Positions 10,950 to 36,207 of a DNA stretch of 64,000 bases are shown in pieces. Numbering within the stretch: the first letter of the stretch is position 1; every line of letters starts with the position of its first letter. The position numbers and the translations under genes were made by a program. A model generated the notes under the pieces. It saw only the letters and a list, made by a program, of their open reading frames with translations. It did not search any database and was not told the DNA's origin. The stretch lies in the NCBI GenBank assembly GCA_047967505.1, contig CM106538.1. The stretch is one strand, 5' to 3'. The DNA is from Dipteris shenzhenensis. Taxonomy: Eukaryota.

Positions 10950-13900
10950 AATGCGTCTAGTTGCAAGGTATCTTAGAAGTATTCAAGACAGTCCATCACA
11001 CCCATGCATTTGTTGTGGATCTCTCTCTTTCAAGTCGAAGCTACATGGTGTTTCTTCCATTAATAGGCAATTCTTGGATCTAAACTCAAGGAACACCGCT
11101 AACTTCCCTTGCTATGAGCATGTCATATGTACCTTATGCGAGGGACACAAATCCGCAAAGGTTCTCTACCAAGGTTTTGTTTAGAAAACATGACTTTGGC
11201 TCATCCAACACAGTACACGAACATGCTCAACGACATTGAGGATGCCTTATTGCAATACGCATGCCCTTCACACAAATCCATGAACTATCGTTTGATGGCC
11301 AGTACAGATTGCGAGGAGTAGTGGTGAATGTTTTCGCAGATGTCGATAGGGAGTAGCGGATTTTGCCACGGTTTATGGACAAAATTGCAATAGTCATGGT
11401 AGAACTGAAGCATAGGCTATCATATGCACAAAATTACATGAGGGCCATGGCCTTGTGCAGCCCACTTTGAATTTCAATGCTCTACATGAGCTTTTGAGCA
11501 CACCATTATACTGTGAATCTGAGGTGGTGCTCAACCCCCTGTGGACAAGCCTTATCAATGCTCTGTCGCAAGAGCCTACTCACAAGCCTTTGCATGACTC
11601 CAACTTGGACACTGACGATAATGTTGTAGCAATCGACACACTTGTCCATGGAATCTACATAGCACAACAAGTTGTTGATCTCGAGGACAAAACAATATGT
11701 GTCACACCATTAGAAGGCTTCGCTCCAATGAGCATTTTCAAAGACACTCAATGTGATGAACTCGCTTTACTATTCTACAAATATCCTAGGCAATACAAAA
11801 TACTAGAATGTACATCTTACCAAGACATCTCGCATTGGGAGCTTGTCCACAAAGACTATCGGTTCTTGCACTCCATAGAAAACCTCTTCTTCAAAACCAT
11901 AAAAATACTTGTCAGTCAAGTTTTGTCATTGACATGGGTCCGTATCAGAAAGGGCAAGCTGCAAGGGAAGACAATACTTGCAAGGGACATTGCACAATAC
12001 ACAGACATTGAATGACTTCTACAATTAGACATAGTCTTTCGTGACTTCATGCATATGCGAACATTAGTTGACTACAAACATAAATTGCAAAAAAACCTCT
12101 TCGCCATGCTACGATAGCTCGACCCACCATGTTTTTTTCTCACGCTATCATCGACGGTAGAGAAAACATGGGAGCCCCTAGTTAAATGTCTTCATGAACT
12201 AATAGTGGACGCAATACCTCCCATCGAAAGCCTTGATAATGCCAGTTTAAGAGAGCTCATACACAGTGACCCCATCATAACTGCGAGGTATTACATGCAC
12301 AAGTTCCAGTGTTTGAAGCGCCTTTTGAAGAGTGAGAATTCAATACTCAGCCACATTGTTGATTTCTTCTTTGTCACAGAATTTCAAAATAACCACTGAC
12401 ATTGCATTGTTCATGTGTGAACCTAAGGATATACAACAAAACAACACAGAGCCACTTGCAAGAAAAAGGGCAATACATGCCATCTCCGTTTCTCATGGCC
12501 CCTAATGGGACAAAAAAAAATACTAGAACCCATCGATGAAATTGATGAGGTTGGAGAAACAACTACAAAAGATATGCAATGCTTTGGAAAATGATCGCAT
12601 CGAATAAGAGAATTTTGATACATTTCTTAGTGCAGTTTCACTCTCCGATGTTCAGTACTTGTATGCATTGAGCTCAGCTATCTCGCAGCTAACAAATTTT
12701 TTAAAAAGACACCCAACAGACATTTACACAAACAACTTTAACCCACAACTTTAGCCCAACATTGTCACACTTGTGGGGGGCAAACATTGATATCCAATTT
12801 GTCCTTAATGCACATGGAGCTGCTGCATACTATACATCGCACATGACAAAGATTGACAAGGCTATAGCAAAGGCTATGAAACAAGCATTTCAACAATGTC
12901 TACCAACAAATGCTACTGCAAATGAATGCATTAGGAAGATAGACAATGCCATACTAAACACACAACCCATTAGTGTACAACAAGCTATATACTTGTTACT
13001 ATCATTGCCATTAACAAGTAGTACATGAGAGTTTTTGCTACATTGACACTACTCCCTTTGAGTAGTGGACACTCCTACTTAAGAGGCAGGCGTAGGTCAA
13101 AAAGTTGGAGCCTTCGTGTAGCGATGTATTTTTTGATGACATCATTGCCAAACACTTAAAATGTAGCAACACCCTGACTTCCCAGTGCTTGGTAGAATAT
13201 ACTAGTGCATACACAACCAATGGATTAATAGTAACAAAGAAGTGAAAACTATTGAAAGTAATACGTTTCAATAACTACAACCTTGCAAAAGACCCTGAAA
13301 ACCACTTCCATGAATTGTGCCTTCAAGATGACATTCCCACATGGCATGACTTATATGGACTACATATACAAAATATTGAGAGCAATAAGGCCAAGTTCAT
13401 AAAGTAATTACTGCCATCGCCACACTTGCAACTTTCCACAACCTCATCGACAACACTCCCTGATCACAACACCACTTCAATAGGTGCAGCAGAGTTCAAA
13501 ACTCAAAATTTGTGACAAGCCTCCATCATTCATCCATGGTTCCCATTTTACATACCGTGTGATGCCCTGTGATGAATACCATGAGAAACTACATAAACTA
13601 AACAAAGAGCAATGTCTTCTCTTAAAGGACATTCTCTTGAGAAAATGCTTAAAAGACCAACAACCCCTATGCTTGTTCTTATCTGGAAATGCAAGCATAG
13701 GGAAGACATTCACATTGCTGCTACTAGTCCAAGCACTTCTATGGCATTGTTCTCATCACAAAACAACCGATGCAACATTGCCAAAGGTGCTATTGCTATC
13801 CTACATAGGCAAGGTAACATATAATATAGGTGGCATGACTATACATTCCACGCTGCACTTGCCTTTACTACTAAGTGAGTACAAAATCTTGTTAGTAGTA

Positions 13901-15650
13901 CACCTATTGCAAACCTTATCGCAAGCATACAAAGGAGTCAAGCTCATCGTTATTGGTGAGATATCTTTGGTAGGAATCAACACATTCATAGTGTGCGACA
14001 TGCGAATGCAAGATGCGAATGCAAGATATCAAGCATATCCATATGCAACCCTTTGGAGGTGTTGACGTAATATTCTATGGGGACCTTTGCCAAACTAGCC
14101 CAAGAAAAGACGCATGGGTTTTCTCTAAGAAATCATCAGCACTAGCGCTTGCACCATTTGTCTGGATAGACAACGTGATGTACTATGAATTGGTTCAACC
14201 AGTGCGACAAACAAAAAACCTTTTTATAGATTCTTAATTGTATTGAGTAGGCCAACAAACTGAGACCGACATTGTGTACTAAATGCGCTTTATTGCGGAA
14301 GGAAACTGCCAGTAAGAGAAACAACACCCCACCTCTTTTACAAAAACGTGTCAAAGGATAAGCACAATCATGCAATTTTTGAAGCACTCACAACAAGAGC
14401 TTTCACCATCAAAGCAAAAGACTTAAGACATCGCACATGCAACAAAACAATATGAATACCAACAGACATGAAGCTAAGAGAAGACTACACTCAAACCTCA
14501 ATCTGAAATAAGGAAGCATTGTTGAAATTTGCTCAGGGAATTTGGACATAGCTGACAAACTTGTCAATAGTGTGGATGCAGTTTTCAAAACAGTTGACCT
14601 GGCTAGGATACCTCCTATGCTTTGGGTCCAATTCACTTTACACAAATGTCGGTAAATGCACAAGAGCTTCATAGCTTGCACTCTTCACTTCCAACATTGA
14701 GAAACAATGGACACCAATCAAGCAAATAACAAGGGACTTCCAAATAGGAAAAAATCATATCAACACCATCTGCAAAAAATAGTTTCCAATCTAGCCGGTA
14801 GTCACACGAACAATCCATCACACACAAGGCCTTTCAATGGACCCCTCACCTTTGATCCAATGCATGTGAAAGCACATGGGCTCGTCTACATAGCTCTTTT
14901 TAGAATTTGTGATCCAGCATCCCTTTACTTACTTTGCCCTCTAGAAAACAAGCACATCAAGGTAGACTTGGTTGTCCTATCCAAAATTCATTGACTCTCT
15001 TCCACTAGGTTGTGGGAGACAACCTAGAAATATTTTCATGAAGAATCTATTGGAGAGCGATCATTGCAATCCCTCAACACAAGATCGTTCCATGCACACC
15101 AAGATGATGTCATTGCCAGCCAGAGTGTGCTTAACACCACAATTCTTTGCCTTTAAGAGCTTCATGTATCACCAAATCACAACACACATATAATCAGATT
15201 CAACAACTCTCGTAGTATAGAAGGTTTTGGGCTAGCAACATACTTAAACAAAAACATAATACTCATGCATGAGGTTTTTCTATCATCATACAATGGCATC
15301 AAGTGCCTATTGACTGTCCTCCGTGCACCATGCCACACATAAATGGATGTTATCAATGTCTACAAGCCACCATAAACTCTGACAATGTCATTGATACATC
15401 CCCTTCGCAAGCTATATGTAGAAATAAAAACAACAATCCCAAGAACTGTCATAGGCGACTTCAACATATGCTTCCATAAACAAGGCCCATCACAAAACAA
15501 TCTCAACACATTCATGTAGACAAGAAACATGGAGCAACTAATCAAAGACCCAACAACAGTCAATGGCTTGACCATAGACCACATCTGGATACAAAAATAA
15601 TCCCTCATTTCCTTCACACAAGGTACAAATTACACATTGTTCTAACCACT
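10950..15650 (+). mobile_element. Decayed rolling-circle transposon (Helentron/Helitron2-type): Rep + PIF1 helicase + C-terminal AP-like endonuclease
   Basis: PLEG..PMSIFKD..DELA (~11710); LFAMLR*L.PPCFFLTLSS (Rep motif I, ~12100); DPIITARYY..FVTEFQ (motif II, truncated); WGANIDIQF..AAYYTSHMTK (motif III); LNKEQ..LFLSGNASIGKTF (Walker A), PFGGVDVIFYGDLCQ; endonuclease motifs at 15061-15600. Many stops and frameshifts; termini not identified. Confidence 0.88.
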
Positions 15651-16053
15651 CTCTCTCATGTACACAACATTACACACAAACTTGTGGGCATGCCACTTGA
15701 ATGTAATTCATCTTGTTTTTGTGGAGCTTTGTTATTAATTAGTATTCGTGTGTTGCAAGTTTTGCAAATGTGGGGTTGTGCTTATTGTTTCATTAGAAGA
15801 ACAATTCCTACTCTAAGATATAGACAACCTACTTTGGAGGGCATTTTTCAGTAAGAGCTTGTTCACAATCTTGCCAATTCTCATCTATATATGTAGATTT
15901 ATAGAGGGCTTCTTACTCCTTTCATCTAAGGAGCGATTCTTTGATGAGTCTGACAATTTTGGGGCATGAACACCTTAAGGATGGGGGCCAGTCATCTCTG
16001 CCAGCTCATAATTGTGTTGATTTGGTTTAGGTAGTGCATGGAACTTGATTAAG

Positions 16054-17385
16054 CATGTAATGTGTAATATGTGACTCCCCCCATGCTTCTACAATCAATG
16101 ATATGAATTCTCCCAATGCTGTCATAAATCTCTCATAATAAAGCTCATCTATTTGACCTTGTCTAAGCAACTTTACATATGCATCAAGCTTTGTCTACAA
16201 TTTTGCTCTTAAAGTAGCAATCATACGGATGTGAAGCTTGATTCGTAGAGCACTCATACAAAGCTTTCCAATACTCCTAATCTAGGGTGTTTTGAGCCAA
16301 TGTATGTTTTCTTTAGTAGCATTGTGGTTATACAAGAACCTCCTTGACACTTTATCATGAAGATTTTATGTCTTTCCTGATTGTTTCTTATCCTGCTTAA
16401 GCTTCACATTGCCACTCCGTGGAGTCCCATTGGTGAGAGTAGTTCTTCAGCTTTTGCAATGCATTGTGCAGAGACTTGCTATGGCCTCAAATTCCAAGCA
16501 TAAACTAAATGGAGATAGAGTAACTTATCAAAAGTATGTGGATTTCAACATGCAAAGTGCACATATACCCGCTCCAATGGAATCGATAGAATGAGGTCCC
16601 ACTTAGGATCCTTTTTGTGATGATCAAGGGCTGCACTTTGGTTGCAAGAAGGATGCCATTTTTTTAATTGTAGGCTTCTCTTTTGCATCTTCTGAGAGTT
16701 GGTGCAATACAGGCATGTCCATTTGCATCTGCACCTGTATCACAACCATACAAGGACTTGAGGGTCTTCAAATCACTAGCTAGATTCCATTCAACTTGAA
16801 ACATTCCATGTCCATCCACTGTCAATGTTTGCCCTGCCTCTTGTCTTTGAATAATTGATGGGATGCCAATTCTCTCCAAAACCCACTTCTATGTCTCATG
16901 GCATTGCTTTGGGTCTCAAAGGTTGCAAAACCAAATATATCCTTATATTGGACTGAGAAACCTTGCTTAACTTCCTCATCCTCTTGAGCAAAATGCAAGG
17001 CATCATTCTCATAATACATATGCTCACCCTCTCTAGCTTGTGCTCTTTTACCAACTAAGCGTCATCCATTTTTATAACAAATACTAACTTGCCATCTGTA
17101 CAATGAAAGAGAAATATAGTAAGGATATAGAAATGAGAAGGAGTAAAGTTGAATGCAATGAAGGAATTTCTCTTACCTTCTTCTCTCATCCTATAGAATT
17201 TGACCATGGATCTCTACAAATTCTCTACATCCACGTAAACATTATTGCTAGCATTTATCTCAAACGTTTGGATGCTAAGTTTCTTTTTACTCTTCCAATA
17301 CATTGTGCCACTTACACAATGGTATCCTCCGAGCTTTTCTCTAGCACATTGGTTTGTTTCTTGACATGGAAGCCTTGCAGACTAG
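16054..17385 (-). pseudogene. RAG1/Transib-like transposase fragment (copy A, central part)
   Basis: Collinear diverged copy of ~27221-28568, including KMD, FQVEWNLASDLKTLKSLYGCDTGADA, the same intron and WGESHITHYM. Confidence 0.85.
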
Positions 17386-17978
17386 GAACGTACGTTTTCT
17401 ATGCATAGGATTTCCTTTGGAAGATGAATATGTAAGAGTAAGACAACAAAACACAATTTTTAGTAGTTTAATGGAGGAATAATCGGAAAACAGTTGTAAG
17501 CATATCTAAAATGAAACACAATATTTCTACTTCATTTGGAAATGCTAAATCCAGCAAGAAGAGAGTGCCATACACAATTCTTTCATATAAATTATTGAAA
17601 AAGAACCACAAATCCAATAAGAGCTTTCATGAATCATACGGTCCAAACAATCTTCAAAATAAGGCACACGATTGAATGATGTTACAATTTCTATCTTGGA
17701 TTTGAAGTTGGAAACACATCACATACACAATGCAACCCAATAATCTTTGTTTGAAAGATGAAGGTAGAGAACAAAGACAGCACAACCGCAGATCTCTCAT
17801 GCAAACTTACGAATCGTGCATACCTTCACGGTTGGCCATCTTGATATCTTTTGTTTATTCAAAATCCCAATAGTGTAGTTCCCCACAAACCACAAGCCAA
17901 AAGCGCATGAAAATGTAAAGGTTTTGCAACCACAACAACATATATAGTGATGTTGACATAAATGAAACAAGGCTTACA

Positions 17979-18360
17979 TTGTGGAGCAATGGGGGCCTCT
18001 GTCCATTTTGAATACTCAAGGAATGGAGAAATCACACTACAGAGCAAAGGCAACCTACTTCAAGAATACAAGGCATGGGGGTGGTATCACGTGAAGCAAT
18101 GGACTACACGAAATGTTTGACTGGTTTTATAAATGTCTAGTGTCCAGGACTCTCAAGCACGACAAGGTAGAGATCTCAAGTCTCATAAAAGTGGTTCAAC
18201 ACATCAAGAAGACAAGGATATGTGCTGCTTAGAAGTCCTCGATAGGGAAAAAAGGGGTTGCACTTTGGTTGCAATGTAGAGTTAGACAGGGGAGGCATTG
18301 GGTCCTAAGAGAACCCAAATGTAACAAAATTCACAAATTTGTTTGGAAATTGCAAAGTTT
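17979..18360 (+). pseudogene. C-terminal part of RAG1/Transib-like transposase (copy A)
   Basis: Translates VEQWGPLSILNTQGMEKSHYRAKATYFKNTRHGGG. Confidence 0.85.
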
Positions 18361-18583
18361 CATGTGCATATGCATCTGCGACATGGCAGGGCAGAGGGGT
18401 GGGTGGGTTGGGAGGGAGGGTGGTGAAGATATAGCGTTACCGAACTGACAATGAAAGACTGGGGGGGTGGAGAGGGGGTGCACCAAAAAAGCCCTAATTT
18501 AAAAGGGCCTGTAAATAAAAACCCTAAAGTGCTATAAAAAATACTATATGAAGAGCTTCAAAACCCTAAAATCCCTCATATCT

Positions 18584-19625
18584 ATGGCACGAGTTAAACA
18601 AAATGCTAGACCCCTACTAGACACTGTTTAGACGCTACCTGCTCTCCTCCTCAGAACTCCATGACCTCCTAACACACTGCGAGCCCTAGTGGCCAACACG
18701 GAAATGATCAAAATGGATCAGGGGGTTCTCATCATCAAGAGTCCTAGCAATGCGAGTCCCCACCATCTGACTCTCATAGGGGATCCTAGGGATCTCAACA
18801 TGATGAGGGATCCCAGCATGATCAGGGGTTCTCTCAGTCCTTCCACAAATTAATCGTGGAAGTAGAGAGGTCTCCCGAGAGGGACAAAATAGTTCCATCA
18901 ATCATGATCAACTACAAACCATTATCATGCCCCTTCCTCCTCCGTGGGGTGCTCGCATTCAGCATCTAGACCAACAAGGGGAGCAAGAAAGGAAAAGCAA
19001 GGAGATGGAAAGATTAAAGGGGCCACAACAAGAGGAAGTATTTGGTGGGCTCGCATATATTATGAACCTTGGCCCCAATCCTCCAACCAAGTAGACTGCA
19101 CGGAAGAGCACCATCAACCCTCAGTGCCTTGAGATTGTCACATATGAGGAGCATCTAGTACGAGCTGAGAAAGAGCTTCAACTCGACTCATAGCCTCAGT
19201 GAAAGGGAAAGGGAACAAGGACAAAGTAGACCCCTAGGCACGAGAGGCCACCTTGACAGACCCACCAAACACAAAAAGAGGAGTCTGAAGATGAAGTTGC
19301 AAGGGAGGAGAGGTGAAAGAAGTTCAAAGCGGACAAGCGGACATGGAGTCATGTCCAAAGGCCAGTGCAGGGTCCACCAAAGATTAAGAGGCACAGGAAA
19401 TCAGGCGTGAAGGCACTTCAAGAGATCCACAAGTTCTAGAGCACTATGGATAATCTCATTCCCCGTGCAACCTTCCAATGTGTTGTACGTGAAATAGCAC
19501 ATCATTACAAGAATGATGTGTGTTTCACATTTGGTGCTCTGGGAGAAATTCAAGAGGTGACGATGGAGTAGATGGCAGTAGGTCTTTTTGAATTCATGAA
19601 CTTATGTGCTATCCATGCTTGGCGT
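18584..19625 (+). pseudogene. Histone H3-derived gene with long N-terminal extension (copy A)
   Basis: Starts MARVKQNAR; fold region SGVKALQEIHKF*STMDNLIPRATFQCVVREIAHHYKNDVCF..ALGEIQE..VGLFEFMNLCAIHAWR aligns to H3 [62 protein letters not shown]. Confidence 0.9.
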
Positions 19626-20106
19626 AATCTGAATCATTTTGTAAATCTCTACCCTTTGAGGCCAGTGCATAGAATATATTTTTATGTTCTATTATTGTTC
19701 CCATGTTATTATGCATGTTATGTGATGATTTCCATCACTTTATGCAAGTTTAGTGTGACTTTGAGTGGTCAAATGATGTTTTTTCGAGGTCAAACAGGCT
19801 CCATACGTGCCTTACTGGGTTTTGACCTTTTTGGGCTCCCTGCATGATGCTGAACACTTTTCCCTTCTGCACCAAGGTGAGATTCTTGCTAGATTGCTCA
19901 GAAATGACCATTATAGTGCAAAAAGTTATCTGATAGCATGAAGTTCGAACATAAAAATGAATGAAAATATTAATGCCAACAATAATTAAAGCCACATAAT
20001 ACAATGACAATATAAAAGAAATTTTGTAAAAGAACAAAAAATGGGACACTATAGAAAAAGTATATCTATATTCATATAAAATAAAAGCTCTATACAATAA
20101 GGCTAC

Positions 20107-21341
20107 ATAGCCTTTCTCTCTTCTCTAAAACATTGAGATATCGTGCTTTGAATTCCCAAATAGACTCCTAGCTCTAAACCTAGTCGATAGAGTATCAATG
20201 CTATTATCGTTGTTGGCCAGGGACATGGCTGCTCCCATCAATGCCATATCTTGAAAATTGGTTCCAAAAGCATTGAGGGCATCTATGCAGTTCACCAAAA
20301 TGACCTTGTCAGCATTCCGATTGATGTCAGCATGACCAATCACTCATGACAAGGACTTGCACTTCAGAAGGTCCTTAGTGCCTCGTGGCAAAATGTTTTT
20401 GTGGATAAACACAAAGTGCCATTTGGCTTGGCCAAGTTAATGTGCCAGTGATGAGTGATCTCAGCCGTGTAGCTACTACAAACAAGGCGTTGGCAAGATG
20501 AGAAGAGGTCAACCCAAATGCCTCTTGCAACAATCCAACATTACATTAGAATGCTGATAAAGAAAAATTATACCAAGAGAGAAGAAATTCAAAGCTCATA
20601 GTTTCTTACCACTATGGAGTTGTCATGCTCAATCCCTTCCTCTTTGTGAATGAGGATGGATCTAGTGGCCTCCTGCTATTCAGAGTGAGATGTGGAGGCT
20701 TCTTCTGGCACATTAGGTAGGTTGGAGTAGATCTCTTTGTCTGCATCTTTGATTCTAGCCCATGTGAAAGGAAGAACCTCTCTCCTTGAATTATTTGCTC
20801 CCAAAAACCTAGGTTCTTGCATAGTCATGTCCACCTTGTATCCACACAGGACACCAAGAGCTTCATCCTCCTAGAGACCAAACAAAACCTCGATGTCATG
20901 GAGGAAGAGGTATTGTTCTCCATTGACAAGAAGGGTAGCAAGTAAACATACTCAACTGGTTCCCACTCCTCAAAGTTTGAAGGAAATACATCTACCATGC
21001 ACAAGTGCTATTTCAAATCTTAGAAATATTACATAGAATGTAGACTTACAATGCAATGGTATTGTCGATTGATTGCTTGATAGAGCAAGGTGCATGTCCT
21101 TCCCCATGTAGATGTGTTGCACCTTTGCAAGCCATCCTTTCTTCCCAAGCTTGAATTTCATGATGTGGCCCTTCCATTTATGGAAAAGATAATCTCTCTT
21201 GCTCTTGGGAAGCTTATGTGGACCCTTGGCAGATCCTCTCATGACTATCCAATCATTCAAGATGTAGGTGCAAGGCACCCATTCACCTAGTGCATTTTTG
21301 CTCCTGTGGGACACATAAGATATGTATGGTCTCCTCACCAT
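20107..21341 (-). pseudogene. Gene X (copy A): spliced gene with BAH-like N-terminal domain and unknown C-terminal domain
   Basis: YILNDWIVMRG..KWKGHIMKF..AKVQHIYMGKD..LH|YVFPSNFEEWEPVEYV across a phase-1 GT-AG intron (~21048-20993); downstream exons match 24210-25034 and 34865-35435. Confidence 0.65.
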
Positions 21342-23329
21342 TCTTGTACAAAGGTCACAACACCAAGAATGGAACTAAAAATGTAGCTTGGAGGGAGAGA
21401 GAAGCTCAAATAGAGGGAGAGAAAGGGAGAGACGGGGAAGGTATAGAGGGTGCAACTGAAGGTGAAGATAAGCTCCAAGAGGTGTTGTAGCTAGGAATGG
21501 AGGGGGAAAGAGTAGAGGGGGATGAACAAATTCTGTAGGAGGTATTGTAGCTAGGAATGGAGAGAGAAAGAGTAGCTCCTACAAGAGGTGTTGGAGAGGG
21601 AGAAAGACAGTGGACCAAAGTAGGAGGGGAGTTCCCACATTTGAAAAATGGAGGGAGAATGGAGCTAGACCAGAGAAGAGGAGGGGGCAGGCTTGAAACA
21701 AGCTGAGAGGGGGAAAAAATTCACCCAAAAGGGCCCACCGCCTCTTGAATGAATTGTAGGATTGTCTGGGGGAACTGCATATGGGAGGAGGGTCAAGCAT
21801 GGGTTGAGGGGGGGGATGGTTTGAGTGGTCCCCGATGTAAGAGGAGTAGCCAATAGGGGCTATTTGCAGGTTTGCCCACCCTTCATCTCAACATGGCATT
21901 GCCCCAAAAGAAGGATTGGCACACCTCAAATACCTCACTAATCCCTTGAAATTAGGAATTAGGAATCAGGAAAAAAGGGAGCTCATTTTGGGGTCTTTAA
22001 GGTTTGGAAAAATGTCCCTCAACCAATGAGGAGAAGGCCAACACAATGTAGAAATTCCACAAAAAGAAGGAAAAAATATGAAAAAAAAGTACTTTATGTT
22101 GCTACAAGCGTGTGGCATTAATGAGAAGATTTGTTTTTTATTGTTTTATGATTCGCCTGTCTCTATCAAAAGATGTGGACCCAAAATCAAAACAAAGCTC
22201 CATTTTGTCTTTGATGCTTTACATGGTGCTATTGGGGAGCTACAATACAAACGTAGAAAATCAACAAAGCTAGCTAAATCGGGTATATTTTGTAATGATC
22301 ACTTTTATCAATTCTACTCACCCATACAATTTATTAAAAAAGCAAGATCTCCCAGCATGGAATACAATTGACTAGCCAGTCCCTGATGGCATCATCACAA
22401 AATCATATAAAGCCAAACTATTTTAAAAAATACAACATTCCCTGAAACCAAATATTGCTACAATCAAAATTAATGTTTCATGCCACTTACATTTTTTGTA
22501 CAACTTTTTCAAGATTATCCAATTAAAGTTTGTAAGTCAATGTTGACTTTTAGAGCAAAAGGATATAATGAAATTCCAATTGCAAAAATTTTGGATAATG
22601 GTCAGGATAGAATGGTGGCCAACAATGTGTATTGTGAGGTTGCTCATAACTTCAATCAACATTAAGTACATGATTTCCTCGCAAAACTTTATTTTCTCTT
22701 TTTACTGTAAACATAGCAGGATGATAGGCAAAAAACTTGTGGCAATCGACCAAGACGAGAGGTCTTCAGGTCTAATAATTAAAATAAATGTTATTGAGAA
22801 TGACATCCTTCTAACATCCATCTCACTGGGACAATGTTGCACTCTCTCTCAGTTACACAATGACATTATTATGGAGACTGAGAACAATATCTGCAAAGAA
22901 TTTTCATTCATTTTGAACAACAGGAAAGTAAGTTGGTTTCCACCCTGTGTTTCTCCTAAAGCTATTCTCTTTACATTTGCATCATACATTCATCTATCAC
23001 TTCTAAAGTTATGATATTGCTAAAAAAATATTTTTGCAGATACTGCAAAGGAGCGAAAGAAAAATTCAATGCAAGGACATTGTAAATAGAACAATTTAGA
23101 TAATTTAAAGCTATTGACTCCAGGTATTACTTGCAATCCAAAAAGAGAGAGTTGACATGTGATGTATTAATACAAAATGAGTACAAGTATCGTGTGTTTT
23201 TCTATTGTTGCTCATAATCTTTCTCTTGACTTTTGTGCAGTGGAGATTTCTGAGAAGAGTTGTCTTTAGCTTCTTCCACATGCTAGTTAGGTGGCTGCTA
23301 CTATACATCCTCCTAATGACTTGAGTCCT

Positions 23330-23526
23330 CTATGGGCTTGAGATCTCGGCCTGTTGCAATCGTATTGCCTCCTCGTGCATCGACTCGGGATCATGTTGCT
23401 TTGATGTCTCTACCTCCTCATGCATGGGCTCGAGCTCGTGTTGCTTTAATGTCCCTGCCTCCTCTTGTGCATGGGCTCGGGATTTTTTGGTAGCTCTGCA
23501 TGGAAAGGATCAACTGTGGCTTGTCC
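23330..23526 (-). pseudogene. Downstream part of an acidic, repeat-containing ORF interrupted by the TIR element
   Basis: QATVDPFHAELPKNPEPMH then (E)PMHEE-type ~39-bp repeats; continues in frame from ORF 30637-30368 if the element and 3 bp are removed. Confidence 0.55.
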
Positions 23527-23558
23527 CATTAGGGAAGAATTGCGCTCTCCAAAGGGCC
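23527..23558 (+). repeat. Left TIR
   Basis: CATTAGGGAAGAATTGCGCTCTCCAAAGGGCC. Confidence 0.87.
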
Positions 23559-24190
23559 CCCAATTAGTGTTTCCTAATTTCAAGGGATTAGTGAGGTATT
23601 TGAGGTGTACCAATGGGAGTGCTCCTTTTTGTGGGGCAATGCCATGTTAAGGTGGAGGGTGGTGGGCATACCTACAAACAAACCCTATTGGTTGGCTACT
23701 CCTGTTACATCGAGGACCACTCAAACCATCCCCCCCCCTCGTCAACCCATGCTTGACCCTTCTCCCATATGGACCTCCCCCAAACAAACCTACAAGTCAT
23801 TCAAGAGGCGGTGGGCCCTTCTGGGTGAACTTTCCCAAGCTCACACCCTTAGGGTTTAGGGAGGTGCACACTGATGACCTCCTAGCATGTGGAGTCATCG
23901 AAAACATAGGAAATAGGTTCATATCCTAGGAAATGACCTTTATTTTCCTTCTCCAAGAGGGATAAATGGAAGAGGAGGCCTCGATCTCAAGCCCTGACCT
24001 TGCCCCTACCCTTTCCAATCCTCTTATTTCTGTAGATGAGCACAACATCTACTATGAAGAGCCCATAGATGAAGAAGCTGAGGAGCAGGAAGCTACATTG
24101 GCCTTGTAAGTGCTCCAGTGACCTCCTGAACCCCATTCTACTTCTCAAATTCCACCCACATCGGGCACCACCTCTGTTGACCCCGCAACA

Positions 24191-25034
24191 ATGATATGGT
24201 TTCTTGATCCCCTTCTTGTCGATGGAGAACAATACCTCTTTCTCCATGACATAGAGGTTATGTTTGGTCTCCGGGAGGATGAAGCTCTTGGTATCCTATG
24301 TGGATACGAGGTGGACATGACTATGCAAGAACTTGGGTTTTTGGGAGCAAATGATTCAATAGAAGAGGTTCTTGCTTTAACACTGGTCCAAATCAAAGAT
24401 GTAGAGACATCAATCTACTCTGACCTACCTGATGTTCCAGAAGAAGCCTCCACATCTCACTCCAAATAGCAAGAGGCCTCTGGATCCATCCTCATTGACA
24501 AAGAGGAAGGGATTGAGCATCATGACTCCATAGTGGTAAGAAACTATGAGCTTTGAATTTCTTCTCTCTTGGTATACTTTTGCTTTAATGGAATTCTAAT
24601 GTAATGTTGGACTATTGCAGAAGGAATTTGAGGTCGACCTATTCTCATCTCGGCAACGCCTTGTTTGCAGTAGCTTCGGCCGAGATCACTCATTGGCACA
24701 TTACCTTGGCCAAGCAAAAGGGCACTTTGTGGTTATCCATAAAAAGTTTTCTCATGGCACTGATGACCTCCTGAAGTGCAAGGCCTTGTCAAGAGTGATT
24801 GGTCATGCTGACATCAATTGCAATGTTGACAAGGTCATTTTGGTGAATCGCATGGCTACCCTCAATGCCTTTGGAACCAATTTTCAAGGTATAGCATTGA
24901 TGGAAGCAGCCATGTCCCTGGCCAGCAATGATAATAGCGTTGACTCTCTATCAACTAGGTTTAGAGCTAGGAGTGTATTTGGGAACTCAAAGCCTGATGT
25001 TCTCAGTGTTTTAGAGAAGAGAGAAAGGCTCTGA
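24191..25034 (+). pseudogene. Gene X (copy B), 3' exons; BAH-like exon absent
   Basis: ORFs 24191-24469 and 24615-25034 linked by a GT-AG intron (~24536-24620); homologous to copies A and C. Confidence 0.75.
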
Positions 25035-25271
25035 AGCCTTATTGTATAGAAAATTTATTTTATATGAATACAACTATACTTTTTATACAGTGCCCCATTT
25101 TGTGTTCTTTTACAAAATTTATTTTATACTATCATTGTATTTTGTAACTTTAATTGTTGTTGGCATTAATATTTTCATTCACTATTCTGTTCAAAAGCAT
25201 GTGATTAGATAAATGTTTGTGCTATAATGGTCATTTCTGAGCAATCCAATAAGAATCTCACCGCGCGGCAG

Positions 25272-25457
25272 AAGGCAAATGTGTTCGACATCGTGCACGG
25301 AGCCCAAAAATGGTAAAACCCACTATGGCATGCATGGGGCCTGTTTGACTTGGTTAAACAGGCCCCATGCGTACCCCAAGTCAAACCGGCCTCATGCACG
25401 ACATAGTGGGTTTTACCATTTTCGAGCTCCCCATGCGATGCCGAACACATTTGCCTT
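25272..25457. repeat. Long imperfect palindrome between the convergent gene X and H3-like genes
   Basis: AAGGCAAATGTGTTCGACATCG..TGGTAAAACCCACTATG..TTTGACTTGG pairs with CCAAGTCAAA..CATAGTGGGTTTTACCA..CGATGCCGAACACATTTGCCTT (~75-bp arms). Confidence 0.9.
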
Positions 25458-25464
25458 TTGTCAC

Positions 25465-26505
25465 CTCTTTTGGCATGGATAGCATGTAAGTTCGTGTCTT
25501 CAAAAAGACATACTATCATCTACTCCATTGCCTCCTGAATTTCTCCCATAGCACCTAAAGTGAAATGCACATCACTCTTGTAATGCTATGCTATTTCACA
25601 TATAACACGCTAGAAGGGTGCACGGAGAATGAGATTGTCCATATTGGTTTGGAACTTGTAGATCTCCTAAAGTGCCTTCACCCTGATTTTTTGCACCTCT
25701 TAATCTTTGGGGGACCCTGTACTGGCCTTTGGACATGGCTCCATGGCCACTTGTTTGCTTTGAACTTCTTTCGCCTCTCCTCCCTTGCAACCACCTCTTC
25801 AGACTCCTCTTCCTGTGTTTGGTGGGTCATTTGAGGTGGCTTCTCGCGCCTAGGGGTCTGCTTTGTCCTTGGTCTCTTTTCCTTTTCGTGAGGCTGTGAG
25901 ACAAGCTGAGGCTCTTGCTCAGCTCGTACTAGAGGCTCCTCATATCTGATCATCTCAAGGCACAGAGGGTTGATGGTGCTCTTCTGTGCGGTTTTCTTGG
26001 TTGGAGGATTGGGGACAAGGTTCATTATATTTGCAAGCCCGCCAAATACTTCCTCTTGTTGTGGCCCCTGTAATCTCTCCATCTCCTCTCTTTGCCTTTC
26101 TTGCTCCCCTTGTTCATCTAGATGCTCCACTCCAAGACCCCGCGGAGGAGGGAGGGGCAATTGATCAAGATTGACTAGACTATTTTGCCCCTCTTAGGAG
26201 ACCTCTCTACTTCCACGATTAGTTGTGTGGAAGGACTGAGAGGACCCTTGCTTGTGCTTAGATCCTTCATCGTGCTGGGATTCCTCATGGTGCTGAGATC
26301 CCTGGGATCCCCCCTGAGAGTTGAATGGTGGGGACTCGCGTTGCTTATACTCCTGCTGATGAAAATCACCTTCAGATCCCTGGTGATCATTGCCCTCTTG
26401 GCCAATGGGTCTTCCAGTGTGTTTGGAGGCCATGGCGTTCTGAGGACAACAGGTAGAGTCTAAACGGTGTCCAGTGGGTCTAGTAGTTTGTTTAGCTCGT
26501 GCCAT
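25465..26505 (-). pseudogene. Histone H3-derived gene with ~275-aa N-terminal extension (copy B)
   Basis: MARAKQTTR start; ORFs 26505-26194 and 26160-25678 share a frame; after a 1-bp deletion: VKAL*EIYKFQTNMDNLILRAPF*RVICEIA*HYKSDVHF..EIQEAME*MIVCLFEDTNLHAIHAKR. Confidence 0.9.
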
Positions 26506-26592
26506 AGAAATGAGAGATTTTAGGATTTTTAAGTGCTTTATATAGTCTTTTTTAAAGCACTTTAGGGTTTTTCTTTTAAATTAGGGTTTTTT
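26506..26592 (-). promoter_or_regulatory. Putative promoter of the H3-like gene: two telo-boxes and a TATA box
   Basis: Minus strand AAACCCTAA twice, then CTATATAAG ~35 bp before the ATG; similar motifs at 18490-18583 in copy A. Confidence 0.5.
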
Positions 26593-26704
26593 GAGTGCAG
26601 CTCCTCCCCCCCCAGTGTTTTGTCGCTAATTTGGTAATACTTAATCTTCACCACCCTCCCTCCCAACCCACTCACCCCTCTGCCCTGCCATGTTGCACAT
26701 GCAA

Positions 26705-29650
26705 TTATGCAATTTTCAAACAAATTTGTGAATTTTGGAATCTAGTGTTAACTTTATTCATCAAACATTTTACATTTGGGGATCTCTTAGACCCAATGCC
26801 TCCCTGTCTGACTCTACGTTGCAACCAAAGTGCAACCCCTTGGCTCCCTATCGAGGACTTCCAAGCAGCACATCTCCTTGTCTTCTTGACATGTTGAACT
26901 GGTTTTGCGAAACTTGAGACCTCTACCTTATCGCGCGTGAGAGTCCTGGCCTCTAGACATCTATAAAACCAATCAAACATTTTGTGTAGTGCATTGCTTC
27001 ACGCGATACTACCCCCATGCCTTGTATTCTTGAAGTATGCTGCCTTTGCTCTATAATGTGATTTCTCCATTCCTTAGGTATTCCAAATGGACAGAGGGCC
27101 CCATTGCTCCACAAACCATGGTGCATATGCATAAAGAATATGCTGTAAAGAAAAAAATTGTATTAAAAACATAAACTGACTCAAGTTTAAAGCACAAAAT
27201 TTAACCCTAAGGAGGATTATCATGTAATGTGTAATATGTGACTCCCCCCATGCTTCTACCATCAATGATATGAATTCTCCCAATGTTGTCCTGAATCTCT
27301 CATAATAAAGCTCATATGCTTGATCTTGTCTAAGCAACTTTATAAATGCATCAAGCTTTGTCCACAATTTTGCTCTCAAAGTAGCAATTCACGGATGTGA
27401 AGCTTGATTTGTAATGCACTCACACAAATCTTTCCAGTACTCCCAACCTAGGGTGCTTTGAGCCAATGTATGCTTTTCTTTATTAGCATTGTGGTTGGAC
27501 AAGAACCTCCTTGCCTTTTCTCCACCCATGGATACTTTAGCAGGAAGATTTTGTATCTTTCCTGATTGTTTGTTGTCTTGCTTAAGCTTCACATTACCTC
27601 CATGAAGTGCCATTAGTAAGAGTAGTTCTTTAGCTTTTGCAATGCATTGTGGAGATACTTGCTGTGGCCTCAAATTCCAAGCATAAACTAGATGGAGATA
27701 GACTAACTTATAAACTATACGCAGTTCAACATGCAAAGTACATACGTGTACCAGCTCCAATGGAATTGGTAGAATGGGGTCCCACTTAGGATCCTTTTTG
27801 TGATGATTAGGGGCTGCACTTTGGTTGCAAGAAAGGATGGCATTTTCCCACTGTAGGCTTCCTTTTGCATCTCTGAGAGTGGGTGCAATACAAGCATGTC
27901 CATTTTGCATCTGCACCTGTATCACAACCATACAAGCACTTGAGGGTCTTCAAATCACTAGCTAGATGCCATTCAACTTGAAACATTCTATGACCATCCA
28001 CAATTAATGTTTGCCATGCCTCTCATCTTTGAATAATTGATGGGATGCCGGTTCTCTCCAAAACCCACTTCAATGTCTCATGGCACTCCTTTGGGGGTCT
28101 TAAAGGTTGCAAGCCACCATATGTCCTTCTCAAATTAGACTAAGAAACCCTGCTCAACTTCCTCATCCCCTTGAGCAAAATGCAAGGCGTCATTCATAAT
28201 ACAAATGCTCACCCTCTCTAGCTTGTACTCTTTTACCAACTGAGCTTCATCCATTTTTATAACAAATACTAGCTTGCCATCTGTACAATGAAAGAGGAAT
28301 TCAGTAAGGATATAGAAATAAGAAGAAATAAAGTTAAATGTGAAGAGGGAATTTCTCTTACCTTCTTCTCTCATCCCATATAATTTGACCATGGCTCTCT
28401 GGAAATTCTCTACATCCACGTAAACATTATTGAAAGCATTCATCTAAAATGTTTGGATGCCAGATTTCTTTTTACTCTTCCAAGTCATTGTGCCACTTAC
28501 ACAATGGTATCCTCCAAGATTTTCTCTAGCACATTGCTTTGTTTCGTGACGTGCAAGCCTTACAGACCACGGTGTTGGCAATGGCATTGTAGATATCTTA
28601 TACTTTTCCTCCATAGCAAACTTGAAAATTTTAAAAAGAGAGTTGTGAGCTTCACAACTTACACCAGTAGCATCACAAGCTCCAGGCACCTCCTTTGCTT
28701 GCATATGAGGCCCTTGAAGTCCTTTATTACCTCTCTAGCAACTAGTTCACCTAGCCCTATTTAGGGTCCTTCAACACTTCAATGACATCACTTGGCTTTA
28801 TTAAACTTCTTAGAACATATGAAGGATCACTATCATCCATTTCCATTGTTCCCATCACATCCTCCATGAAATTCCTAAAGTAGAGTACAAATGAGTCTTA
28901 GTGGAAACAATGCAACGCCACGAATATTTTGGAGTAAGAAATTTCATTGAAAAATTGGGGAACTAACCTTGCAGCCTGAACTCTCCTCTTTTGGGCACCA
29001 GTAGTGGTTGACAATGCATCCATAGATTGCAATTGTCTTTTCCTCTCCTTCAGTCCCAAAGCTGTTCCCTTCAACTTTTGTACTCGTTCTATTGACTTCT
29101 CTCATTCCTTCTCCACAACATGTTGAACTTGGACATAGATAAACCTTTCCAAATCTTGTTTGCTTTTGGCAAGCTTCTGGATTGATTCTTCCAATTCATG
29201 TCACTCCAAGTCTAATGCATGTGCTTTGTCACTGAGTTATTTGTTTTGCAATTGGAGATCTTGCATACTATTATGCATTGCCACAATAGTGATATTTCCC
29301 AAATGTGCAAGTTCTTCTGCTTGGGCTCTTTGCACCTCACTTGCTTGCATAGCCAATGTTTGAGAATGGTTCAATTGATTGCAATAACTGAGCAATCCAA
29401 CATGTCCCTTGCCAACAAACCGAACAACATCATGCATTGTATGAAAAGGAGGACTCTTTGGGGTGGCAGGGTCTAAAGAATACAAGTTTCCATCCACCCA
29501 AAGGTCAAGATGCTTCTTCCCTTGCAATCGAAGATTGTGGAGCACACTTTGAGGAGTTCCACTATATCCCAAAGAGTGTGTGCTTGCATATTCTGCCTCT
29601 AGTTGTAGGTTCACATGGTACTTGTTGGATATGTCCTCGAATGGTGCCAT
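26705..29650 (-). pseudogene. RAG1/Transib-like (CCHH zinc, DDE) transposase with three apparent introns
   Basis: LVFVIKMDEAQ, WHLASDLKTL, CLYC, VHVCTLHVELRI, ITHYM|HILYAYAPWFVEQWGPLSIWNT*GMEKSH; introns ~28968-28880, ~28361-28281, ~27220-27143; coiled-coil-like N-terminus; several stops and frameshifts. Confidence 0.82.
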
Positions 29651-29699: not shown

Positions 29700-30182
29700 G
29701 CTGGCAAATATGGAGCAGTGAGAGGGAGAGAGTAGCAAGGAAGAGGGAGGAGGAGAAGCATATGAGGGCAAGAGGAAGATGAGGAGAAGAGTAGGGTGAC
29801 AGGTGTAGAAGGGAGGGAAGGAGCTGCTGTAGAAGGGAGGAGGAGGGGAGAGATGCTACAGGAGGGAGGAGGGGAGAGAGTCTACAGGAGGGAGGAGCAG
29901 AGGAGAGGGATCCTAGGCAGCTGGAGAAGGAGGGGAGAGGAAGGAGGGAGGAGGAGCCAAAAGGAGGAGGAGGAGCCAAAAGGAGGAGGAGGAGGGGAGA
30001 GGGAGGAAGAGGAGCAAGAAAGAGGAGGGGAGAGGAGGAGGGAGGGAGGGAGAGGGAGAGGGAGAGGGAGAGGGAAAGGGAAAGGGAGAGGGAGGAGGAG
30101 GAGGGAGGGAGGGAGGGAGGGAGGGAGGGAGAGAGAGGGAGGGAGGGAGAGAGAGAGAGAGAGAGGGAGGGAGGGAGGGAGA
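29700..30182. repeat. GA-rich low-complexity tract upstream of the transposase
   Basis: (GGA)n/(GGGA)n/(GA)n runs. Confidence 0.9.
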
Positions 30183-30335
30183 ATTTCAAAAAGTGGCCCC
30201 CTCCCCTCATTGATGGGGGAAGAGGTGGGCTCAAATGTGGGCTTAGCCCCCTAGGTTGGGCTGGTTAGGCCTCTTTGGGACCCTCTATGCCCCTTGCATT
30301 AGCCCACTAAGCATTCCCTAATCCCTTCCTTATGA

Positions 30336-31682: not shown

Positions 31683-33006
31683 TCATTCATAGTCTTTATA
31701 GATATTTTGATCATTGGTCCAAGTTGCAATAGCTTTTATTGAATTTACTGAATTTGCAACCTTGCCTCTGGTCTCATGTTGGTGAGTGACCTCTATTATC
31801 TTTACTACATCTGCTATAGGTTTCCTGGCTAGTATCAATAGGATATCTCTCATTTTAAGATCATCCCAATCCTCTGCATTAAGGATCTTGTCATATCTAT
31901 ACCTGACCCTTACAAGTGTTTGGATATCGTTTTTCATTATAGTCACCCTGTGTGCATGTGCTGCTACCTGCATTGTGTCTTGAAAAAACTCAATAAGCCA
32001 CTCTTCATTAGCAGCTTCTTGGAGAGCCAGCAATGCAGTCCTTTGCCATGTGAAGTCCATGTTCCAGTTGATGCATATTGCCCTCACAAGCCTCTGGAAT
32101 GGTGCCATGGGTACTGCATACCCGATGGATTTTTGAGCCTTCTTGATCTCCATCAAGATAGTGTTAGATATGCTCAATGCCCCGTCCTCTTGGTAACCAC
32201 CAGTGATCCAAGGTGCTCAAGTTGTAAGGACCCCATATGAGGAGAAGCCATGTGTGAGCCCAGGACATTGGATGGATTCTGACTTGCATATCAGAAGAGG
32301 TCTATCAATGAGACCGTTGATGGTAGAAAGGTGATCTATGTGAGTCTAGCCTATGGGCTAGGCAGGGTAGGTAAGTTAGTAGCACAACGAGGCACATTGT
32401 CTTGATTGTGTGGGAACCCCTTGCTCTCGCTGGGGTCTGGGGGCCAGTGGTCCCCCAGGTGGGGGTTTGGGGGCGAGAGCCTATGAGGCGACAGTATAGG
32501 GAATATTCCCTAAATATTCCATGGACGACTAGTCAATTCCACCGACTAGGTTGATTGGTCGGCTTCACCAACTACATTGATATGACTACCACCCTCATAC
32601 CTATAAAGAGGTGACCTTCCCATTCCATTGTATCAGTTTAGATTAGATTAGATCTTCCAGCTAGTAGCTCTTCACCTAGTATCTGTCTAGATCACCATCT
32701 AAGCTCCATTGTGGGAGTGCATGGGTGGACGGAGCCATCATCTGTACTACATCAGTATTGAAGGAAAATTTTGTTCGTCTCCAGTTTGCTGTGTACTCTC
32801 TATTCTTTGTTCAGTTTCTATTCCGCTGCGCTGTGTAATTTAATAGATAGATCTACCTTGGCTCACTCTTTTCTTCTTGTTCCTTGCTAGCATATGCATA
32901 GGCTTTTCCTTCTTTGAGGATTTTGTTCTCTTGATGGAGCTGTGGCAACCCCTACAATGTCGGGTCCCTTACATTTATTCCTGGCTATTTCTTTTGTTCT
33001 AGCCAT
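31683..33006 (-). pseudogene. Second, distinct histone H3-like gene with C-terminal extension, interrupted by an insertion
   Basis: ATG at 33006 gives MARTKEIARNK; fold ILMEIKKAQKS..PFQRLVRAI..FTWQRTALLALQEAA..FFQDTMQVAAHAHRVTIMKNDIQTLVRVR in ORF 32177-31683. Confidence 0.85.
32407..32856 (+). mobile_element. LTR-like insertion (solo or truncated LTR) inside the H3-like gene
   Basis: Starts TG, GC-rich GGGGTTTGGGGGCGAGAGCC motif, CCTATAAAG TATA-like box, composition differs from flanks; no clear CA end or TSD. Confidence 0.45.
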
Positions 33007-34864: not shown

Positions 34865-36207
34865 GAGAAGAAGCCTCCACATCTCACTCTGGATAGCCAT
34901 CCTCATTGACAAAGAGGAAAGGATCGAGCATGATGACTCCATAGTGGTAAGAAACTATGAGCTTTGAATTTCTTTTCTCTTGGTATAATTTTGCTTTATC
35001 GACATTATAATGTAATGTTGGATTGTTGTAGGAGGCATTTGAGGTCGACCTCTTCTCAGCACCTTGTTTGACTTAGCTTCGGCCGAGATCACTCACTGGC
35101 ACATTACCTTGGCCAAGCAAAAGGGCACTTTGTGTGGTTATCCACAAAAAGTTTTCACCCCAAGGCACCTCCTAAAGTGCAAGGCCTTGTCACGAGTGAT
35201 TGGTCACGCTAACATCAATCAGAATGCTGACAAGGTCATTTTGGTGAACCACATGGATTCCCTCAATGCTTTTGGAACCAATTTTCAAGGTATGGCATTG
35301 ATGGTAGCAACCATGTCCCTGGCCAGCAACAATAATAGCGCTTACTTTCTATCAATTAGGTTTAGAGCTAGGAGTCTATTCAGGAATTCAAAGCCCGATA
35401 TTCTCAATGTTTTAGAGAAGAGAAAAAGGCTGTGAAGTCTCGTTGTACAAAATTTTTATTTTATATGAATACAGATATACTTTCTCTACAGTGTCGCATT
35501 TTGTGTTCTTTTACTAAATTTATTTTATACTATCATTGTATTTTGTAGCTTTAATTATTGTCAGCATTCGTATTTTCATTCAGTAAGCATGCTATCAGAT
35601 AACATTTTGCGTTATAACATGTCTTTTTTGAGCAATCTAGCAAAAGAATCTCACCCTGGCGTAGAAGGGAAAAGTGCTCAGCATCACGCAGAGAGCCTAG
35701 AAAGGTCAAAACCGGCTATGGCACATATAGAGCCTATTTGACCAAGTCAAATAGTCTCCATACATGCCATAGTAGGTTTTGACCTTTCTGGGCTCCTCGT
35801 GCGATGCTAAGCACTTTTGCCTTCTGCATTAGGTCAAAAAACCATAATTTGATCACTCAAATTTACAGTGAACTTGCATAAACTAATGGAAAGCATCACA
35901 TAACATGTATAATAACATGGGAATAGTAATAGAACATAAAAAAATATTTTATTCATTAGCCTCAAAGGGAAGAGATTTACAAAAAGATTCAGATTACACC
36001 AAGTGAAACTAAACAACATCTAGGGCCTAAGGGAAGGATCAGAGTGGGATGCGATTGGCGAGTGCAAGGTCCCTGTCCATCATCGTTACTCTTTTGGCAT
36101 GGATAGTGCATAAGTTCACATCTTTAAAAAGACCTACTACCATGTACTCCATTGCCTCCTAAATTGCTCCCATAGTGCCTAAAGTGAAACACACATCATC
36201 CTTGTAA
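34865..36207. mobile_element. Partial copy C of the H3-carrying transposon (gene X 3' end, palindrome, H3 3' end)
   Basis: Matches 24440-25270; palindrome 35661-35827; 35830-36000 matches 19625-19790 in reverse. Confidence 0.88.
36039..36207 (-). pseudogene. C-terminal histone-fold fragment of the H3-like gene (copy C)
   Basis: [54 protein letters not shown], retaining helix alpha3 that is missing in copies A and B. Confidence 0.88.

Follow-up and report, generated by a model that had tools for sequence, protein, structure and literature searches.

A probable decayed transposase gene with a RAG1-like predicted fold, and the genes that accompany it, in Dipteris shenzhenensis

Introduction

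RAG1 is the enzyme to which antibodies and T-cell receptors owe their diversity, and its origin from a transposon is a classic question. A first-pass annotation of a 64,000-nucleotide stretch of DNA from Dipteris shenzhenensis (the whole of this stretch is called the window here), made from the letters alone, proposed a RAG1/Transib-like transposase with introns in what it took for a plant-type genome. The locus raises the question of what kind of enzyme was encoded there, which genes travelled with it and to which of the known transposase lineages it belongs. We find that the gene at 26774-29650 on the minus strand, called copy B below, is very probably the decayed transposase gene of a multi-gene cut-and-paste transposon, with a RAG1-like fold and within the CMCT clade. 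As described in the available part of PMC12730594, this clade takes in EnSpm/CACTA, Mirage, Chapaev, Transib, Plavaka, ESTA, Lanisha and RAG1, and is marked by CA..TG termini and duplications of 2-5 bp. Copy B itself is an ordinary relic without function and matters as a pointer to a large family of plant-type, intron-bearing genomes, which extends the range over which the RAG1/Transib fold is known and offers an outgroup for ancestral features of RAG1. New here are a histone H3-like gene and a convergent second gene, ORF2 (open reading frame 2), which accompany the transposase in related loci and in both copies of the element in the window.

Structure and Decay of the Transposase Gene

Throughout, relatives are database proteins (P0001, P0011, P0012 and others) and related loci are metagenome contigs (of the type L001-L040). 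Searches by tblastn with P0001, P0011, P0012, P0018 and P0009 delimit a full-length gene on the minus strand of the window with four exons (28968-29650, 28362-28874, 27221-28280 and 26774-27142) and three introns, which we read as a pseudogene of a DDE transposase of predicted RAG1/Transib fold. The matches span essentially the whole protein (P0001 residues 7-755, E 1.25e-102; P0012 223-896; P0011 2-885), which speaks for a real gene and not a product of chance. The last detectable homology lies near 26774; the boundary at 26705 in the first-pass annotation is about 70 bases past it.

The annotation had claimed introns, and three were found, two of them with intact GT..AG borders. Intron 1 (28875-28967) is 93 nt long and intron 2 (28281-28361) 81 nt, the latter with donor and acceptor strings identical to those of a second copy of the element, copy A, at 17088-17183. 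Intron 3 (27143-27220, 78 nt), directly after the motif ITHYM, has a good AG acceptor and a donor mutated to AT. In alignment A1, 20 of the 25 relatives are prokaryote-style open reading frame calls that stop as HY[MI]V exactly at intron 3. Such ends represent read-through of a GT donor, so that the family as a whole has kept the site of this intron, which is absent from P0011 and P0012.

All the peptide motifs that the annotation had quoted were located in the minus-strand translation. The protein begins with MAPFED (29633-29650). The first predicted catalytic Asp (P0011 D411) lies in VIKMDEAQ (28240-28263) and the second (P0011 D508) in WHLASDLKTLKC (27936-27971), followed 20 residues further on by CLYC (27885-27896), which holds the putative CxxC zinc ligands (P0011 C528/C531). 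After VHVCTLHVELRI (27716-27751) and ITHYM (27221-27235) comes HILYAYAPWF (27113-27142) with the putative Hx4H zinc ligands, and then IWNT*GMEKSH (27056-27088), in which an in-frame stop precedes the predicted catalytic Glu (P0011 E785). The second zinc His is a Tyr in copy B, as the annotation had seen, with the codon TAT at 27125-27127; the close relative P0035 retains the His (HILYAHCPWF). The catalytic D, D and E are thus all present in copy B, where the split zinc site has a Tyr as its second His.

The exon alignments hold nine in-frame stops, and the frame changes three times, near 28740, 28095 and 27880. These changes are not attributable to introns, since each of the three introns has a length divisible by 3. 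With its stops, frameshifts, ruined splice donor and His to Tyr replacement, copy B is a dead gene.

Purine-rich low-complexity tracts of the GGGA/GAGG type were observed at 29700-30190 and 53780-54240, the former directly upstream of the transposase start codon.

Predicted Fold

An AlphaFold2 model was built for the intact relative P0011, 898 residues long (intact relatives have about 900), using alignment A4, which comprises 76 of 178 proteins and in which the placement of C-terminal fragments was checked. The model has a mean predicted local distance difference test score (pLDDT) of 79.5 and a predicted template modelling score of 0.69. Averaged in blocks of 10 residues, the pLDDT mostly exceeds 90 in the region 370-780, and the model shows a long N-terminal coiled coil. 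Foldseek against the PDB returned 49 matches at E<=1e-3, and all the matches listed among them were RAG1 (mouse or zebrafish), amphioxus RAG1-like or HzTransib. The best was RAG1 (5zdz_C, E 4.2e-12), with amphioxus RAG1-like at 5.5e-9 and HzTransib at 6.2e-7; the P element transposase took rank 50 at E 2.9e-3. When VIA-align was run on the Foldseek list, RAG1 6xnz_C aligned with Z 19.3 (root-mean-square deviation 4.4, 461/549 residues aligned, model 241-846 against chain 459-1007), HzTransib 6pqx_A with Z 17.9 (deviation 4.0, 420/480 aligned) and BbRAGL, the amphioxus RAG1-like protein, with Z 17.5. The next family after RAG1/Transib was the P element (Z 10.1), then ISCth4 (Z 8.9) and Hermes (Z 7.5). 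A search of 48,161 chains that was independent of Foldseek gave the same order, with RAG1 4wwx_E on top (Z 18.9, 489 residues aligned, model 214-849 against RAG1 431-1008), and a language-model feature search with P0011 380-860 also put RAG1 clusters first (score 0.96, 200/256 features shared).

These comparisons support for P0011 a predicted architecture that matches the RAG1 core 431-1008, consisting of the dimerisation/DNA-binding domain (DDBD), pre-RNase H, an RNase H domain with the D-D-E residues, ZnC2/ZnH2 and the C-terminal domain (CTD). The annotation had proposed AlphaFold and Foldseek as a check on its reading; for P0011 the best matches were RAG1, amphioxus RAG1-like and HzTransib, and neither EnSpm nor a fold other than RNase H.

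Catalytic and Zinc-Binding Residues

Conservation of the D/D/E and CCHH residues, on which the annotation had staked its case, is seen in A4. The first Asp (D411) is kept in 37/37 sequences, the second (D508) in 44/49 and the Glu (E785) in 23/30, and the zinc ligands C528, C531, H761 and H766 in 42/49, 42/50, 23/38 and 22/40, respectively, many of the non-His and non-Glu entries being intron read-through. In the distant members P0062, P0067, P0076 and P0115 the Asp residues and the Glu are kept (P0115 begins past the column of the first Asp), and both Cys are lost together with the second His. This joint loss fits one shared zinc site.

The spacing of these residues in P0011 (D411-D508 97, D508-C528 20, CxxC, Hx4H, H766-E785 19) is close to that in mouse RAG1 (108, 19, CxxC, Hx4H and 20). 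The latter follows from the residue numbers D600, D708, E962, C727, C730, H937 and H942, which the annotation had given and which agree with those in the available part of PMC4914335. The window lineage has 25 residues between the first His and the Glu, the same distance as RAG1 937-962, which is consistent with the gap-free alignment of the last motif to RAG1 that the annotation had put forward. HIV-1 integrase was also matched among the 48,161 chains, its residues 57-194 aligning to 404-842 of the model; its first catalytic Asp, D64, would fall on D411 if the first strand is ungapped.

Size of the Family and Searches at the Sequence Level

A word search returned 27 relatives, of which only three carried a name, all of them hypothetical proteins from the fern Adiantum nelumboides. 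A three-sequence profile run against 1.84 billion representatives of clusters at 50% identity matched 1258 clusters at E<=1e-3, 457 at E<=1e-10 and 92 at E<=1e-30, most of them fragments. In metagenome contigs 40 family loci were confirmed among 193 pattern matches. A single assembly contributed 23 of the 40, at 31-57% identity to P0001 (the contig of P0001 itself excepted). Transposases of the P0011/P0012 type and those of the window share about 25-30% identity in tblastn segments. Pfam searches with eight window open reading frame pieces and with the relatives P0001, P0002, P0009, P0011, P0012, P0016 and P0018 gave nothing relevant. The Pfam set used throughout contained neither the newer RAG1 domain models nor PF26100. 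No published description of the family was found in the literature searched on Lanisha, Transib and plant RAG1-like genes.

Accompanying Genes and Element Ends

Directly downstream of copy B, on the same strand, lies a histone H3-like pseudogene (25490-26505, minus strand), which starts with MARAKQTTRPTG (MARAKQTT) and has stops in its histone-fold part. Its counterpart in copy A (18584-19559, plus strand; MARVKQNARP ... GVKALQEIHKF) also has stops, and a further H3-like frame lies at 31683-32216 on the minus strand (Pfam Histone, E 3.2e-20). The gene was thus detected three times in the window; it lies directly downstream of the transposase and on the same strand in both copies there and in 5 of the 40 related loci (L009 2210-2704, L013 1723-2226, L024 2658-2888, L026 3699-4436 and L038 1371-1496). 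The three loci tested match Pfam Histone (L009 E 5.6e-26, L013 5.6e-34, L026 2.6e-18), and several of the proteins begin with MARTKQTARK or MARTKQTAKK, like the H3 tail. The transposase of L013 is of the P0012 type and that of L009 of the P0011 type. As the H3-like gene occurs both with these and with transposases of the window type, it has long belonged to part of the family, and looks like a retained component rather than a recent capture. In the literature searched for transposon-borne H3 only a fungal hAT transposon turned up, which, in the available part of PMC6710886, amplified a histone H3 gene.

ORF2 faces the transposase from the other side. Remnants of its middle and C-terminal domains lie convergent to copy B at 24122-25034 on the plus strand, according to tblastn of P0176 (24155-24298 and 24678-25010) and alignment A6, and a further fragment was found with P0176 at 35181-35276 on the plus strand. 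With the same query ORF2 was found downstream of the transposase in 10 of the 40 loci, in nine of them convergent (L001, L002, L005, L008, L010, L014, L016, L020 and L031) and in L028 on the same strand. Many contigs end before the position of the accessory genes, and the fractions for the H3-like gene and ORF2 are therefore lower bounds. ORF2 has 627 aa in L016, and a good alignment of the C-terminal domain was obtained from 10 sequences, that of the window included. ORF2 gave no Pfam family at E<=10 beyond chance-level rows, no Kelch match and no atlas match, and a word search in which the 8000 candidates sharing most words were scored returned only ORF2 itself. An AlphaFold2 model of the C-terminal domain had a pLDDT of 42.7 and was unusable.

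Past the ORF2 start, L014 (5056-6058, seven copies), L001 (5022-5244, four) and L005 (4937-5098, three) have arrays of short repeats of 13-24 bases, in direct and in inverted orientation. These arrays look like the subterminal binding-site arrays of a transposon with terminal inverted repeats.

Other Copies and Features of the Window

Copy A has its transposase core at 16051-17382 on the minus strand, located by tblastn and by the motifs VIKMDDA, WNLASDLKTLK, CLYC, TLHVE and ITHYM. Positions 16054-17382 match 27221-28567 of copy B in the same orientation at 87% identity, and the N-terminal third is missing. The last exon (17972-18343) keeps NTQGMEKSH intact, in line with what the annotation had said of TQGMEKSH in copy A, and lies on the plus strand, opposite to the rest of the copy. 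Around it 17979-19618 matches 25473-27114 in inverted orientation (81% identity), and the counterpart of the ORF2 region at 19789-20950 on the minus strand is likewise inverted relative to 24195-25349 (86%). A third, partial copy of the ORF2/H3-like region lies at 34866-36207 on the plus strand (81-84% identity to 24439-25583). In all, the window has two old copies, rearranged relative to each other, and a third fragment; since every one of them is broken, nothing in it is active.

From 17979 to 27114 the two copies make up a large inverted structure with a unique stretch (21959-23570) at its centre. Homology of the facing blocks across this centre ends in a shared string of 25 bases (block ends 21958 and 23571), no further copy of which was found within the window.

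Several further features were observed. Adjoining the third copy, an open frame at 36930-37658 (minus strand) has a borderline match to an N6/N4 DNA methylase (Pfam E 6.7e-06, 26.6 bits against a cut-off of 26.7), unusual in a plant-type genome. A DUF7869 match at 55811-56705 (plus strand, E 5.1e-11) is probably another DNA-transposon remnant, and a fragment of a PIF1-like helicase at 13484-14065 (plus strand, Pfam E 2.5e-07) is possibly derived from a Helitron. Judged by eye from their translations, 2497-6810 (plus strand) and 57509-61341 (minus strand) are Ty1/copia-like polyprotein frames. At 43555-49430 there is a block of repeats, tandem as well as inverted and about 560-900 bases in size, with GT/CA-rich microsatellite at the flanks.

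Placement Among Known Transposases

Several observations weigh against reading copy B as the transposase of a RAG1-like element. The predicted fold is that of P0011, whose identity to copy B is about 25-30% in tblastn segments, and not that of the window protein. The PDB matches held no EnSpm, Mirage, Chapaev or Lanisha transposase structure for comparison; RAG1 as the top match means the closest solved fold and does not set the family nearer to Transib than to those lineages. The equation of D411, D508 and E785 with D600, D708 and E962 is inferred from the order and spacing of the residues and from the ranges that align. At Pfam E<=10 none of the 25 members of A1 had a transposase or RAG1 family among the matches listed (25 of 57 families), and phmmer of P0001 and the 25-sequence A1 profile, run against all PDB sequences at E<=10, gave no RAG1 or Transib and only coiled-coil noise. 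The family is large, yet no sequence method links it to RAG1/Transib. Finally, neither terminal inverted repeats nor target-site duplications turned up in the window, in the eight longest loci or at the ends of the 40 contigs, no contig being shown to span a whole element, so that mobility is read only from the number of copies, their diversity and their decay.

The clade is a different matter from Transib proper. The order of the motifs in the family agrees with D..D..C(2)C..H(3-4)H..E, the signature common to the whole CMCT clade in the available part of PMC12730594. As this signature is shared across the clade, the motif argument alone places the gene in CMCT and not specifically with RAG1/Transib. 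Motifs and model together support a place for the family in the CMCT clade, with RAG1/Transib as the closest predicted fold among solved structures. Membership of Transib proper is not established, as the test for sequence similarity to the Transib/RAG1 core came out negative. The annotation had concluded on a RAG1/Transib/Chapaev-clade enzyme; the P0011 model and the motifs support this as regards fold and motifs, and both refuting conditions that it had named were answered in its favour. Its description of the group as mostly known from animals and other non-plant eukaryotes likewise stands only in part. EnSpm/CACTA elements are a plant staple. From the moss Ceratodon purpureus a cut-and-paste superfamily, Lanisha, has been proposed (available part of PMC8245031; published in Repbase Reports 2020, as cited in the section seen of PMC12730594), and plant assemblies are reported to contain 39 Transib-like proteins, the species named in the legend of Figure 1 (Juglans, Capsicum, Hordeum, Silene and Corrigiola) being angiosperms (PMC9435367).

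What then is the nearest kin of this family? That it is Lanisha itself or another EnSpm-like CMC lineage, and resembles RAG1 because RAG1 and Transib are the only solved structures of the clade, we hold to be a real possibility, somewhat short of an even chance. Lanisha, a cut-and-paste lineage of plants that is likened to EnSpm in the available parts of PMC12730594 and PMC8245031, sits in CMCT with RAG1, a clade whose members have the C(2)C and H(3-4)H motifs in common, and no Pfam model was seen to cover it, as with the present family. The feature search points the other way, in that RAG1 was the only transposase family named among the matches listed, with no EnSpm; for an EnSpm-like lineage one also has to set against this view that no Pfam transposase family, Tnp2-type included, was met at E<=10 among the matches listed, and that the structural match covers RAG1 431-1008 and so reaches beyond the RNase H core. 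A canonical Transib of the sort known from angiosperm assemblies, brought in by horizontal transfer or contamination, is very improbable. The 39 plant proteins on record (PMC9435367) give this idea a precedent, but canonical Transibs are detectable by sequence and the family gives no match to HzTransib or RAG1 in PDB sequences. The 39 were themselves found by similarity to Transib, which the family lacks, and it is therefore probably different from them. Moreover, the copies in the window have spliceosomal introns at conserved sites and are set among Ty1/copia elements of the same genome.

We give equally little credence to a domesticated host gene family, that is, a plant RAG1-like recombinase. 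The missing terminal repeats and target-site duplications would suit it, as would the many database members with long open frames. Against it stand the two rearranged copies and the fragment in the window, all full of stops, the 23 divergent loci of one assembly, the subterminal kind of repeat arrays beyond ORF2 in L014, L001 and L005, and a two- or three-gene unit that recurs with differing flanks. We also weighed and discarded chance similarity, an origin from prokaryotes or viruses, and a fold other than RNase H. A decayed transposase of a multi-gene cut-and-paste element, RAG1-like in fold and belonging to CMCT, is the reading that we retain.

Proposed Element and Its Meaning

Judging by the window and by related loci, the element appears to be laid out as the transposase followed by a same-strand H3-like gene, with the convergent ORF2 facing the transposase. 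By analogy with RAG1 and Transib, an active enzyme of this kind would dimerise on the element ends, and its three carboxylates with two metal ions would nick the DNA, as such enzymes do. The flanking DNA would then be hairpinned and the excised element integrated, again on the model of these enzymes. We offer tentatively, as an idea more doubtful than likely, that the family is an ancient uncharacterised lineage of plants and of plant-like eukaryotes, distinct from Lanisha and EnSpm, in which a RAG1-fold transposase is joined by a partner in the position of RAG2 and by an H3 variant of its own, either deposited on the chromatin of the element or titrating readers and writers, to evade silencing or to guide integration. 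If this were true, recombinases of the RAG1 type that have a partner of their own would be much more widespread outside animals than thought.

Comparison With Known Systems

The closest likeness in predicted structure is to the RAG1 core and the RAG1-like protein of ProtoRAG (4wwx, 6xnz and 6b40), with Z 18.9-19.3 over 461-489 aligned residues and with D-D-E, CxxC and Hx4H at nearly equal spacing. ProtoRAG also has a convergent second gene, there RAG2-like (PMC9435367). Unlike RAG1 and ProtoRAG, the family shows no detectable sequence similarity to them and no ends resembling recombination signal sequences (RSS) were found here, and it has a long N-terminal coiled coil, an H3-like gene, spliceosomal introns and a partner without a Kelch match in Pfam. 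Transib is reportedly defined by 5-bp duplications and RSS-like inverted repeats, neither of which was found in this family. Sequence similarity to Transib is lacking as well; P0011 is about 400 residues longer than HzTransib (898 against 451-480 in the solved chains) and the element of the family has extra genes. What the two have in common is the predicted fold (Z 17.9; 6pqn and 6pqx) and a transposon-borne, multi-copy gene. Within the CMCT clade at large the family differs by having no match to a Pfam transposase model among the matches listed, and agrees in the motif signature and in its plant host, shared with EnSpm and Lanisha in the available part of PMC12730594. With the fungal hAT element, as described in the available part of PMC6710886, it has in common that a DNA transposon carries a histone H3-like gene; that element belongs to another superfamily and another kingdom, and in the present family the H3-like gene is found repeatedly in members that are only distant relatives.

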